IMG/VR virus record: IMGVR_UViG_2711768050_000003
Origin: a virus
Lineage: Duplodnaviria; Heunggongvirae; Uroviricota; Caudoviricetes
Length of the DNA: 35,951 bases
Direction: 5' to 3' (one strand)
Shown here: positions 1,369 to 8,044 of the stretch, one piece after another
Layout: the number at the start of each line of letters is the position of its first letter
Position numbering within the stretch: position 1 is the stretch's first letter
Translations under genes and position numbers: made by a program
Notes under the pieces: generated by a model
What the model was told of the DNA's origin: nothing
The model's database searches: none
What the model saw: the letters and a program-made list of their open reading frames with translations, nothing else

Positions 1369-1444
1369 GCCGATATAGCTCAGTTGGTAGAGCAGCGCAT
1401 TCGTAATGCGAAGGTCGTAGGTTCGACTCCTATTATCGGCACCA
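1369..1444 (+). tRNA. thrW: tRNA-Thr (anticodon CGU)
   Basis: 76-nt sequence GCCGATATAGCTCAGTTGG...GGTTCGACTCC...GGCACCA with D-loop, T-loop, anticodon loop CATTCGTAATG and encoded CCA; matches remembered E. coli thrW. Confidence 0.9.
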
Positions 1445-5606: not shown

Positions 5607-5969
5607 TTAACGACCTGCTGCGCGGAGTTTTCCGTCAGGTTCACCGGCAAGAGTCAGCAACTGTCCCTGGTCTTCCTGCAGAATAGTCAGGCGACCACCG
5701 CGATTGACATACATCGGCGTTTCGGTGGTGTCTTCTTCGGAAATTTTCCCGCGGTTAGTCGGGCGAACATATGAGAGTTTGTGTTTGATTTTCACTCGGT
5801 TCTCATCAAACGGTTCGATTTCTAGGTTGAGCGAGACCTTACCTTTGGTTTTCGTGTTCATCACACCGGAAGCGACTTCACTGAGTACTGCGCCGATTTT
5901 GGTTTCAAATACGCCGCCGTCCAGCTCCCTGATAAATGCCTGCACATCAGTACTGCGTTCGCTAGCCAT
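5607..5969 (-). CDS. YfdP-like prophage protein, function unknown
   Basis: Start at the internal ATG (MASERSTDVQ...) with GAGGAG RBS; the longer 226-aa six-frame ORF would run through GC-rich structured DNA with junk-like translation. Confidence 0.5.
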   Translation of the reverse strand: MASERSTDVQAFIRELDGGVFETKIGAVLSEVASGVMNTKTKGKVSLNLEIEPFDENRVKIKHKLSYVRPTNRGKISEEDTTETPMYVNRGGRLTILQEDQGQLLTLAGEPDGKLRAAGR

Positions 5970-6017
5970 TTTGCTGCTCCTCATCATATCGACCCTGCAA
6001 GGCCGGTTAGTTTCTCC

Positions 6018-6106
6018 ACAAAACAGAGAAGAACACCTGCGGTGACTGCCGCCCGGATGGATTGGGTTATGAGCCCGTCGTCCGGTGATGCTCTTCTCTG
6101 TTTTGT
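6018..6106. repeat. Long inverted repeat: 14-15-bp perfect stem (ACAAAACAGAGAAG / CTTCTCTGTTTTGT) closing a ~60-nt GC-rich loop
   Basis: Direct reading of both arms; located 48 nt upstream of the YfdP-like start in the leftward transcript. Confidence 0.6.
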
Positions 6107-6115
6107 AAAAAGGAC

Positions 6116-6150
6116 GGTACCAGCCGGAAGCAAGGGTACAAGCTGGTACC
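6116..6150. repeat. Perfect 9-bp hairpin GGTACCAGC-N17-GCTGGTACC containing GGTACAAG
   Basis: Direct reading; three GGTAC(A/C) motifs, and GGTACAAG is identical to one arm of the cI/cro operator palindrome at 7975..7995. Confidence 0.55.
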
Positions 6151-6375
6151 GCCAAGACTACACACAGCATAAAGTTGTGGTGCCGGGTGCCTCCCGGTGC
6201 CTGGCGAAGGTTGCACACCAGGCGGGTGGGTATCCACAGAAGGTCGACTGTCAGCCTCAACCTTAACCCGCGTGCGCTGAGCCGCATTCACCACAACGCT
6301 AAGGATTCTCTCTGGTTGAAAATACTTAGCTGTTATGTGCCTGCTTTTAGCCACATCAGGCGAGGTGGACCTAGT

Positions 6376-6422
6376 TATTCCCCAACAACAAGGATTCGGT
6401 TAATCTGGTTATCCCCAACAAC
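6376..6422 (+). repeat. Direct repeat TTAT(T)CCCCAACAAC x2 immediately upstream of the 6438 gene
   Basis: Copies at 6376..6390 and 6409..6422; the second ends about 16 nt before the ATG. Possible regulator-binding or promoter element. Confidence 0.5.
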
Positions 6423-6437
6423 GCAAAAGGAAAAGAA

Positions 6438-6872
6438 ATGTCCGGTAATATCTATACGCTGTACAAATCCCACTGTGAAAATGTTGGAAAGTATCGGGGC
6501 ATTGAAATCAGTGGGGTAGTGTCATCAGTCGAAATAAGCAAAGTTGAATCAAGGGCAACATTACTTACTCTTTTGGACCTTGTCTTACATGAGCACCGGA
6601 AGAAATTCGGCACTCCCTATAATCAGTTGAATGGGAAAAAGGCTCTGGTTCACCTTATTCTGATGAAGCATCACTGGATGCCAAAACAGATTAATGAGAT
6701 GAAATTTGATGAACTTCTTCTTTCAATTCAGGATGAACTCACACTTGATAAAATAAGCGTAACCGCCCAGAAATTTTTAGATTATCGAGACTGGAGATCA
6801 CAAATTCATCACTTTGATGATTTTGACGAAAATGAATGGGATCCTAATTTGTCTGCACAATATCTAAAGTAA
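6438..6872 (+). CDS. hypothetical protein, AT-rich cargo gene transcribed opposite to the early-left operon
   Basis: 144 aa with AAAGGAAAAG RBS; visibly AT-rich against GC-rich flanks; 3' end overlaps the convergent 6844..7050 gene by 29 nt; no recognisable motifs. Confidence 0.55.
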   Translation: MSGNIYTLYKSHCENVGKYRGIEISGVVSSVEISKVESRATLLTLLDLVLHEHRKKFGTPYNQLNGKKALVHLILMKHHWMPKQINEMKFDELLLSIQDELTLDKISVTAQKFLDYRDWRSQIHHFDDFDENEWDPNLSAQYLK

Positions 6873-7050: not shown

Positions 7051-7109
7051 TTCACATCTCCTCAAGTTATCAGTTACTTGTTGATGGGGACCAGATTGTT
7101 AAAGAGCTA

Positions 7110-7132
7110 AGCGTCCTGTAGGGCGCTTTTTT
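7110..7132 (+). terminator. rho-independent terminator, rightward
   Basis: AGCGTCC-TGTA-GGGCGCT stem-loop followed by TTTTTT; no U-tract on the opposite strand. Confidence 0.5.
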
Positions 7133-7211: not shown

Positions 7212-7246
7212 GGGTACATTATGTATCTCAAAGGTACATTGTCAAG
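7212..7246 (-). promoter_or_regulatory. PL-like early leftward promoter with overlapping operator half-sites
   Basis: On the minus strand: -35 TTGACA (7240..7245), 16-nt spacer, -10 CATAAT (7218..7223); GGTACA motifs overlap both hexamers. Confidence 0.5.
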
Positions 7247-7249
7247 TAT

Positions 7250-7270
7250 AAAAAAACCTGCCGAAGCAGG
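7250..7270 (-). terminator. rho-independent terminator downstream of cI
   Basis: Minus strand reads CCTGC-TTCG-GCAGG followed by UUUUUUU; 15 nt after the cI stop. Confidence 0.55.
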
Positions 7271-7284
7271 TTCATAAACATTGA

Positions 7285-7959
7285 TTAGGCTTTGATTTTG
7301 TATCTTCTTGGTTTTCCTGAGAAAATCACTGTACCAATTATAGAGCAATTACCGTTGATCTTAATGTAAGGCTCAGGCCAGTTTGGGTTTAACGCTTTGA
7401 GATAACGCTGTGTCCCATCTTCTATCAACCTTTTGAAGGTGGTTTCGCCTGTATCGTGCATCAATGCAATAACGTCGTCACCGTGGCAGGCAGGTACTTC
7501 AGGATCGACAAAAATCATGTCTCCCGGGCGGTACTCATCAATCATTGAATCACCTATCACCCGCAAGATATAAGTCATTTCCCCACAGGGTACAGGGCAG
7601 GGATACGTTTCTGCTGTGCTCAAATCAACCTCAGAATATCCAACTTCTTTCCATGCTCCGGCCTGTACCCATGATATGACAGGGACTAATGTGATTTGTT
7701 TATTAGTGATTGAAACATCAGGTTTTTTTGTGATGTTCGTTGTCTGGTGTTCTTGATCGAGCCATCCGACAGGCAGGTCGAAACATTTTTCGATGTGTCG
7801 TGCCATGCTGTCACCGATATTTTTAGTAGCACCATCTCCCATAAACCTGCTGGTCTGGGTTGGCTCGCGATCAATCATAGTGGCAAAGGAAGAATTCCCG
7901 CCAACACCATCTCTCAGTTTTCTGGCGTTAGACCGCCGGATGTCATGGATTGTTTTCAT
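7285..7959 (-). CDS. cI: CI-like repressor (HTH plus S24 LexA-like autopeptidase domain)
   Basis: 224 aa; C-terminal domain with GDSM (Ser) and FKRL (Lys) dyad; divergent from the cro-like gene across an operator-rich intergenic region. Confidence 0.85.
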   Translation of the reverse strand: MKTIHDIRRSNARKLRDGVGGNSSFATMIDREPTQTSRFMGDGATKNIGDSMARHIEKCFDLPVGWLDQEHQTTNITKKPDVSITNKQITLVPVISWVQAGAWKEVGYSEVDLSTAETYPCPVPCGEMTYILRVIGDSMIDEYRPGDMIFVDPEVPACHGDDVIALMHDTGETTFKRLIEDGTQRYLKALNPNWPEPYIKINGNCSIIGTVIFSGKPRRYKIKA

Positions 7960-7974
7960 AACGAAATTAAAACC

Positions 7975-8044
7975 CTTGTACCGTTAAGGTACAAGTATCT
8001 TGAAGGTTCATTTCAATCATGTAATATGTACACCGGAGGTACAT
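7975..8044. promoter_or_regulatory. OR/PR/PRM-like immunity switch region
   Basis: Perfect palindrome CTTGTACC-GTTAA-GGTACAAG (7975..7995); second GTAC-centred site TGTACACCGGAGGTACA (8027..8043); rightward promoter -35 TTGAAG (8000..8005), 16-nt spacer, -10 TAATAT (8022..8027). Confidence 0.5.

Follow-up and report, generated by a model that had tools for sequence, protein, structure and literature searches.

The stretch of DNA analysed here (the window; 35,951 nucleotides (nt), IMG/VR virus record IMGVR_UViG_2711768050_000003) is an SfV-like lambdoid prophage of Escherichia coli. Its interval 5970-6437, located between yfdP (5607-5969, minus strand) and an oppositely oriented moron gene of the ECs1072 family (6438-6872, plus strand), is a structured-RNA locus on the minus strand, in the same orientation as the early-left (pL) operon. 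Judging from sequence comparison, the interval is reasonably probable to be an untranslated but transcribed stretch of the SfV-like pL operon, giving rise to a composite non-coding RNA in which a pseudoknotted domain of the STnc100 family (RF02076) is joined to a small RNA (sRNA) module of the KilS/DicF type. The locus can be placed in known prophage RNA families as a member with rearranged parts and a score below threshold. It was detected in 2782 of 5426 complete E. coli genomes and also in SfV, SfII, SfIV, ST64B and other phages.

Architecture and strand of the RNA locus

The first-pass annotation, made from the letters alone, had described the interval as a GC-rich, structured non-coding region, and all features listed there were found at their positions. 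The GC content amounts to 54–58.5 % over 5900-6399 compared to 34–43 % in the adjoining moron. The long inverted repeat has perfect arms of 15 base pairs (bp; 6018-6032 and 6092-6106, 59 nt between them), which extend to 25-nt arms at 84 % in a repeat search, and the direct repeat consists of TTATTCCCCAACAAC at 6375-6389 and TTATCCCCAACAAC at 6409-6422. The short hairpin is present as well; its stem, given as 9 bp, actually comprises 10 bp at 100 % (arms 6115-6124 and 6142-6151, 17 nt apart). A structured RNA (leader, processing site or sRNA) had been suggested without assignment to a strand, which proved to be the right territory. The Rfam scan proposed at that time supplied the key lead: under permissive settings, STnc100 matches over its full model (1-206) at 6327..6104 on the minus strand (43.4 bits, E = 1.2e-7). 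The resulting anatomy is as follows.

6298..6330, minus strand: hairpin P0 (arms 6330..6318 and 6310..6298), immediately 5' of the core, from repeat search and RNAfold
6174..6297, minus strand: STnc100-type core, a five-helix junction with pseudoknot, from Rfam, the R1 model (see below) and covariation
6297..6289 with 6182..6174, minus strand: helix P1, closing the core
6288..6286, minus strand: junction J1/2 of the core, AAU
6285..6271, minus strand: P2 region of the core
6270..6266 with 6227..6223, minus strand: helix P3 of the core
6264..6258, minus strand: PKa, AAGGUUG, the strand just inside P3 that pairs with the P4 loop
6222..6216 with 6206..6200, minus strand: helix P4, with loop CAACCUU (6213..6207) pairing with PKa
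between P4 and P5, minus strand: junction J4/5 of the core, CA
6197..6183, minus strand: helix P5 of the core, CCGGG-AGGCA-CCCGG

The order helix P1, J1/2 (AAU), P2, P3, P4, P5 and 3' strand of helix P1 constitutes a single architecture across 38 + 31 sequence clusters. For the search of relatives, a covariance model of our own (R1) was built from the window subtype; it scores the window with 101.3 bits at 6304..6167, while its E-values are rough. As loci in IMG/VR are redundant, distinct sequences or duplex types were counted.

Compensatory changes in the core between the window and its relatives, for which the first-pass annotation had proposed to look, were found in abundance. On the R1 alignment (A3), which was fitted to the model and thereby favours structure, 94 % of the cells are paired, compared to 72 % in shuffles and 33–45 % with slid partners, and 26 of 30 pairs display compensatory changes on both sides, a number reached by 0 of 500 shuffles. 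Compensatory changes in helices P1 and P5 were also detected by RNAalifold on an independent MAFFT alignment (A2). The latter was dropped for pair counts in P3 and P4, where registers differ between subtypes, and replaced by A3 together with an anchor-based script. The position of the pseudoknot holds more than 20 distinct duplex sequences, including CAGUUAA/UUAACUG, AAGGCUGG/UCAGCCUU, GACUGACAAA/UUUGUCAGUC and UGGUUAU/AUAACCA, as well as CCAGUC/GACUGG, CUGGUG/CACCGG, AUCAGCA/UGCUGAU and others. At least 6 contiguous bp can form in 38 of 43 distinct combinations of site and loop, compared to a mean of 9.7 and a maximum of 18 when loops were permuted among family members (2000 permutations). 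Helices and pseudoknot vary freely across 93 distinct core sequences, and the invariant positions are mostly unpaired (J1/2 AAU, the P2 loop CU..GCG, the A of J4/5 and the P5 loop AGGCA).

Hairpin P0 has counterparts of other sequence at the same place in ST64B, phiES15 and phage P1, with one compensatory change (C-G to A-U) between window and ST64B; in the K-12 prophages Qin and Rac, this place is taken by the DicF/KilS terminator. A tRNA-like gene was considered and rejected, since ARAGORN found no tRNA in six related loci.

The RNA is assigned to the minus strand because a U-tract follows the hairpin 6153..6112 only on this strand, because G-U cells outnumber A-C cells by 191 to 32 when the alignment is read in this direction, and because the better fold relative to shuffled sequences was obtained here (376-nt stretch; z = -5.9 versus -3.4 on the plus strand). 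It is very improbable that the relevant molecule is instead a plus-strand RNA, namely a long 5' untranslated region (UTR) of the ECs1072-family moron gene (6438-6872). Such an RNA would agree with the lack of a recognisable promoter of this gene in 6300-6437, with the plus strand likewise folding better than shuffles and with the situation in phage P1, where, according to predicted upl promoters, the 5' UTR of upl runs antisense to the core. However, besides the U-tract and the excess of G-U cells, two findings contradict it: the core occurs without any moron gene in SfV, ST64B, Qin, Rac and phiES15, and mosaic breaks part the moron-proximal segment 6369-6437 from the RNA.

The earlier statement that no credible open reading frame (ORF) covers the interval holds, with the caveat that open frames of 49–114 amino acids (aa) cross it, that PGAP annotates a frameshifted pseudo-coding sequence (5984-6294, minus strand) and that two PHROG families match: PHROG 3651 a 74-aa ORF on the plus strand (6042-6266; E = 6.6e-49) and PHROG 33599 a 49-aa ORF on the minus strand (5984-6133; E = 1.9e-17). 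A protein-coding interval in either of these forms is nevertheless highly improbable. Both PHROGs are of unknown function and were built from annotated ORFs, and may therefore be artefacts of ORF calling on a conserved RNA. Breaks interrupt the frames already in the window, neither phiES15 nor phage P1 keeps them open, Pfam yields no match, and the substitutions between window and ST64B are not 3-periodic (45/41/39) and accompanied by 1-nt indels, the variation being compensatory for RNA pairing. PHROG 3651, PHROG 33599 and the PGAP pseudo-coding sequence thus probably represent ORF calls on the conserved RNA.

Relation to STnc100, KilS and DicF

The core shares with STnc100 the closing helix, the motif GGUGAAU, the P2 loop, the exact 22-mer CACCGGGAGGCACCCGGCACCA and an intrinsic terminator on the 3' side (in the window, the hairpin 6153..6112 followed by U5). 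The 22-mer and GGTGAAT are present in the window and occupy positions conserved to at least 95 % across the 93 distinct sequences. While the invariant 22-mer was found in at least 120 viral contigs, the motif GGTGAATGCGGC..AGCGC.CGCGG of the window subtype was found in at least 120 more. R1 also retrieves canonical STnc100 copies (40–63 bits), and the pseudoknot is common to both; a canonical copy from a Klebsiella phage scores 85.1 bits with the Rfam model. In contrast to canonical STnc100, P2 and P3 of the window read GCG/CGC and CGGNN/NNCCG instead of CCCC/GGGG. The Rfam consensus structure lacks both the pseudoknot and the P3 described here.

The two subtypes also differ in genomic position. 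Canonical STnc100 is located between the Q antiterminator gene and lysis or nanS-p genes, whereas the window core resides in the early-left operon between cI and yfdP and has no promoter of its own: neither scanning nor visual inspection of 6330-6437 revealed a sigma-70 promoter from which the RNA could start, and the closest approach to one, TATTTT with its poor -35 region, is unconvincing. According to heuristic promoter and terminator calls on 57 window-subtype and 29 canonical copies, a promoter of the type TTGACA-17-TAAATT ends 3–6 nt before helix P1 in 10 of the 29 canonical copies, and a terminator follows within 160 nt in 23 of them. None of the 57 window-subtype copies has an in-register promoter, and they are therefore regarded as operon-internal.

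Canonical STnc100 corresponds to EcOnc27 (EcOnc27/sRNA103 in E. coli O157), a terminated, Hfq-bound RNA of ~235/247 nt (PMC4104026 Table S2; PMC12711010), and has been related to PasD in a 2026 preprint (10.64898/2026.05.13.724894). EcOnc20 of O157 Sakai was rejected as a homologue, as it represents the unrelated N leader of Sp5. Tandem arrays of core copies were observed between Q and lysis genes, e.g., in Fels-1 (locus L132, 3095-3232, 3490-3609 and 4632-4777), with four copies within ~1.1 kb in locus L018 and three to four in L026; in several contigs, pairs of the exact 22-mer are spaced ~484 nt apart. The isrJ match (57 bits; L131 3328-3406) of Klebsiella phage ST11-VIM1phi8.1 has the Q gene on one side and, on the other, an STnc100 copy with a promoter, after which come tRNA-Asn and lysis genes; the short pR' transcript and STnc100 may be separate units in this phage. 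Furthermore, isrK and C4 antisense RNAs are encoded in rightward operons of SfV (L002 5987-6175) and ST64B (L003 5736-5924), and directly after a core copy in locus L137 (5046-5234), with no isrK/C4 match at gathering level in the window.

Directly downstream of the core, a second unit was identified.

6107..6173, minus strand: KilS/DicF-type sRNA module, directly 3' of helix P1
6173..6154, minus strand: single-stranded UUUAUGCUGUGUGUAGUCUU, the 5' part of the module
6153..6112, minus strand: terminator hairpin with a perfect 10-bp part (6151..6142 with 6124..6115)
6111..6107, minus strand: U5 tract after the terminator hairpin

An alignment of the module with the 3' 66 nt of K-12 KilS shows identity at 52 of 71 positions, among them all of the 14-nt UGCUGUGUGUAGUC of the KilS seed region; with DicF, 48 of 69 positions are identical. 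KilS (K-12 Rac, b4833) is a Northern-verified sRNA predicted from Hfq RIL-seq data (PMC8175672), and DicF is made from an operon transcript by termination and RNase III/E, yielding species of 190 and 53 nt (10.1101/2023.04.14.536235). The seed is shared with KilS, GGCGGYAYCAG opens the terminator hairpin as it does in KilS and DicF, and all three have a U-tail, belong to a repressor-controlled early operon and are adjacent to the same core. The Rfam DicF model (RF00039) produced a weak match (6166..6112, 19.4 bits, E = 0.34), which takes the last place in a graded series of variants (76.7, 61.1, 42.8, 38.1 and 29.2 bits). The low score is attributed to the distal half of the hairpin, which differs from KilS and DicF in its GGUACC arms. 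Further differences concern the ftsZ-pairing loop of DicF (ACUCCG), which is absent from the window module; the arrangement, with the module 3' of the core in the window and 5' of it in Qin and Rac; and the downstream gene, which is yfdP in the window and kilR or dicB for KilS/DicF.

The hairpin 6153..6112 together with U5 is a predicted intrinsic terminator of this module on the minus strand. The first-pass annotation had proposed the segment as a distal repressor-binding site, since GGTACAAG (6135-6142) indeed has the same sequence as an arm of the OR palindrome (7975-7995). That the hairpin serves as a CI operator can practically be dismissed: the terminator stem contains no more than a half-site, and CTTGTACC-N5-GGTACAAG with up to 3 mismatches was found nowhere in the window outside 7975-7995. 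The GGTACAAG 8-mer occurs once outside OR versus 0.68 expected per window. The same hairpin is present at 91–93 % identity in mEp460 and WGPS2, the repressor of which has an unrelated DNA-binding part, and ST64B carries another, unrelated stem sequence which still forms a 9-bp hairpin with U-tract.

Core copies in other prophages and a possible function in cis

Copies of the core were identified in two spacers of the K-12 genome, namely dicF-dicB of Qin (NC_000913 1649447-1649588; L236 2948-3089; 124.7 bits with R1 and 34.4 bits with Rfam STnc100) and kilS-kilR of Rac (L238 2756-2898; 122.3 bits with R1). In both, helix P1 comprises ~20 bp and starts right after the DicF/KilS U-tail. RefSeq carries no annotation at either position, and a paper on dicBF regulation mentions no structure in the dicF-dicB region (10.1101/2023.04.14.536235). 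In phage P1, the core precedes tciA; it is part of the ban operon, which is under C1 control and in which a 'dicF-like region' has been annotated as well. No literature was found describing the core in the two K-12 spacers or at tciA. The layouts are dicF - core - dicB in Qin, kilS - core - kilR in Rac, core - module - kil in phiES15 and dicF-like region ... core - tciA in phage P1, the Qin-type arrangement forming the largest window-subtype cluster. Phage RCS47 has a second, weaker copy (L005 1805-1953, 33.6 bits), which comes immediately after the pair of tRNA genes in the P1-type ban operon and overlaps with the antisense gene plp at the 3' end of the latter.

More divergent cores with the same helix P1 edge (25–35 bits with R1, missed by Rfam) occur at the place of the window core in mEp460, WGPS2 and phiNP. 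These 'type-2' cores (mEp460, L006 2349-2497; WGPS2, an Stx2a phage, L007 2349-2497; phiNP, L009 ~2250-2560) display the edge GUUGUGGUG...CACCACAAC around a different interior, and their P2 loop AGGCUGAU is complementary to the last hairpin loop AGAUCAGCA. The pL leaders of WGPS2 and phiNP contain 600–900 non-coding nt with T-loop-like GGUUCAAUUCC and GUUCGAUUC, and no tRNA was found in them by ARAGORN. Visual comparison showed a resemblance between the 'type-2' core and part of the ydfC-dicF spacer of Qin, with a common GCGGCGG.AAGUA...GGGG segment; this spacer is the region in which RNase III cuts for the 190-nt DicF precursor (10.1101/2023.04.14.536235).

In 49 of the 57 window-subtype copies, an ORF starts within 90 nt after the core. 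These copies lie 32–44 nt upstream of small ORFs which mostly code for cell-division inhibitors or toxic proteins (DicB, KilR, Kil of phiES15, TciA of phage P1 and similar small proteins). This distribution raises the question of whether the core acts mainly in cis, be it as a riboswitch-like sensor, in control of translation or stability of toxic early genes or as a put-like read-through element, with the sRNA module as a mere neighbour. Invariance of unpaired nucleotides next to freely varying helices would suit a function in cis, and so would the terminator that directly follows the core in the window and in 23 of 29 canonical copies, yet leaves downstream genes in need of expression; moreover, no N homologue is evident. 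Against this stand several observations: the 3' strand of helix P1 has, by eye, no overlap with a terminator or Shine-Dalgarno sequence that could switch; the ~20-bp helix P1 of Qin and Rac is too stable to do so; the core of Qin and Rac follows the DicF/KilS terminator and therefore cannot antiterminate at that site; and canonical copies accumulate as terminated, Hfq-bound RNAs (PMC4104026). A mainly cis-acting core is accordingly considered unlikely.

The put-like variant requires comparison with put of HK022, a ~70-nt element of two stem-loops directly at pL and again after pR (PMC9378689). Each is a structured RNA that lies in an early-operon leader ahead of a terminator, and neither phage has a recognisable N. 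The window core differs in size and fold (~124 nt, five helices plus pseudoknot), in its single copy in the window and in sequence; homology was rejected, as HK022 shows neither an Rfam STnc100 nor an R1 match and put has no similarity to the core. Likewise, boxA or boxB of a lambda-type nut site is absent from 5970-6437, and the neighbouring small proteins, inspected for an N protein, match no annotated family. Antitermination through one of the known element types (nut, put), as contemplated by the first-pass annotation, is not supported.

A related but broader proposal draws on the range of contexts in which the core is found: before dicB, kilR, kil and tciA, before sRNA terminators and in tandem arrays of late operons. 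The core may represent an unrecognised class of cis-acting phage RNA that binds a conserved host factor or ligand (RNA polymerase, ribosome, RNase or a small molecule) and controls read-through, processing or translation, with the STnc100 sRNA as no more than a terminated by-product; this is a tentative, rather doubtful possibility.

Operon setting and proposed route to the RNA

The CI repressor gene (7285-7959, minus strand; product 99 % identical to SfV CI) is surrounded by cro-, ymfL- and yfdPQR-type genes. Further features of the setting are the following.

7218..7245, minus strand: pL-like promoter TTGACA-16-CATAAT from a promoter scan, directly downstream of the cI terminator (7273..7254)
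6369..6437, no strand assigned: moron-proximal spacer with the direct repeat (6375-6389 and 6409-6422), outside the conserved RNA
6018..6106, minus strand: long hairpin in the yfdP 5' UTR, with a 20-bp stem (6106..6087 with 6037..6018, G-U included)
5967..5982, minus strand: Shine-Dalgarno sequence GAGGAG (5982..5977) and yfdP start codon (5969..5967)

The pL-like promoter is overlapped by operator-like ATGTACC..GATACAT. As this promoter follows the cI terminator on the minus strand, the early-left operon would run leftward through the interval, and the pL-like promoter is the presumed source of transcripts across 6330..5970.

A stretch resembling rrn-type boxA was noted ~105 nt downstream of this promoter (AGCUCUUUAACAA at 7108..7096, minus strand; 12 of 13 positions as in UGCUCUUUAACAA). 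It is the sole such 13-mer, with a chance expectation of 0.05 per window, and is preceded by the hairpin AAGCGCCCUACAGGACGCUU in the rrn order boxB-boxA (element 7096-7128, minus strand). The boxA-like site could shield the ~1-kb untranslated pL leader from Rho; boxA-like sequence is absent from the other core-bearing leaders checked.

The stem of the long hairpin is capped by a conserved two-hairpin apex and is located ~35 nt upstream of the yfdP Shine-Dalgarno sequence. Its changes in ST64B-like phages are compensatory (G-C to A-U, and G-U/C-G to G-C/U-G). It accompanies yfdP even where the core is another one, namely in mEp460, WGPS2, cdtI and Stx2c phages, the mosaic break in these phages being at window position 6155. 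From the length of its stem, the hairpin 6106..6018 is likely a candidate RNase III site. Homology to yfdP of K-12 CPS-53 begins only at the Shine-Dalgarno sequence, the sole common part; this locus was rejected as a source of expression data, as its upstream region lacks the element.

A second mosaic break was located at ~6368, with SfV, SfII and mEp460_4F5 matching only up to query position 399. Because of this break, the direct repeat is assigned to the moron spacer rather than to the RNA core; within this spacer (6369..6437), scanning of both strands detected no sigma-70-like promoter. Read on the minus strand (GUUGUUGGGGAAUAA and GUUGUUGGGGAUAA), the repeats have the form GUUGUUGGGGA(A)UAA and are similar to the 5' edge of helix P1 (GUUGUGGUGAAU) and of the core, which is conserved (GUUGUGGUGAAUGC); recombination at the common core edge may have left them behind as relics. 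A tRNA gene was found at 1369-1441 (plus strand, anticodon CGU for Thr, 71.8 bits), in agreement with the thrW attachment site used by SfV-family phages.

For the composite RNA, the following route is proposed. Upon loss of the CI repressor, RNA polymerase starting at pL would read through P0 and the core, and a fraction of the transcripts would halt at the intrinsic terminator (6111..6107) to yield an RNA of ~190–225 nt. This RNA could be trimmed by RNase E/III, with cleavage in the AU-rich linker (CAAC/UUUAU) giving a KilS-like product of ~65 nt with an Hfq-type 3' end, which by analogy with DicF, KilS and EcOnc27 may work in trans with Hfq. Read-through RNA would carry the 20-bp hairpin 6106..6018 together with yfdP and downstream early genes. 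The anatomy, strand, family relations, structural covariation and genomic context were read directly from the comparisons above; promoter use, processing steps, Hfq dependence and action in trans are inferred. The most likely product is a small RNA of the Hfq type to which pL transcripts would give rise when they are terminated or processed.

Several findings weigh against this route. Transcripts from pL would first pass ~430 nt antisense to the moron gene and encounter a weak terminator-like site (6769..6754) on their way. Both Rfam scores are below the gathering threshold (STnc100, 43.4 versus 47 bits; DicF, 19.4 versus 48 bits). No target could be predicted for the module; with the ftsZ translation start, RNAduplex gave z = -0.16, in a test that did not pick out the positive control, K-12 DicF, either (z = -1.25). 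Finally, the 49 window-subtype copies mentioned above are followed closely by an ORF start and not by an sRNA module, so that the core may mainly be a cis-acting 5'-UTR element and the sRNA a separate adjacent unit.

Taken as a composite non-coding RNA, the locus extends known families: STnc100/EcOnc27/PasD, DicF and KilS seem to belong to a single modular system of early and late prophage operons. No description was found of the five-helix pseudoknot fold or of the modular link between STnc100, DicF and KilS. Annotation pipelines miss the locus because its score is below the Rfam gathering threshold, and about half of the complete E. coli genomes carry the interval under the label 'hypothetical protein' or 'frameshifted', i.e., a real RNA locus mis-annotated as coding. 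The function of the core is testable in K-12, where it lies next to two cell-division inhibitor genes with ill-understood post-transcriptional control.

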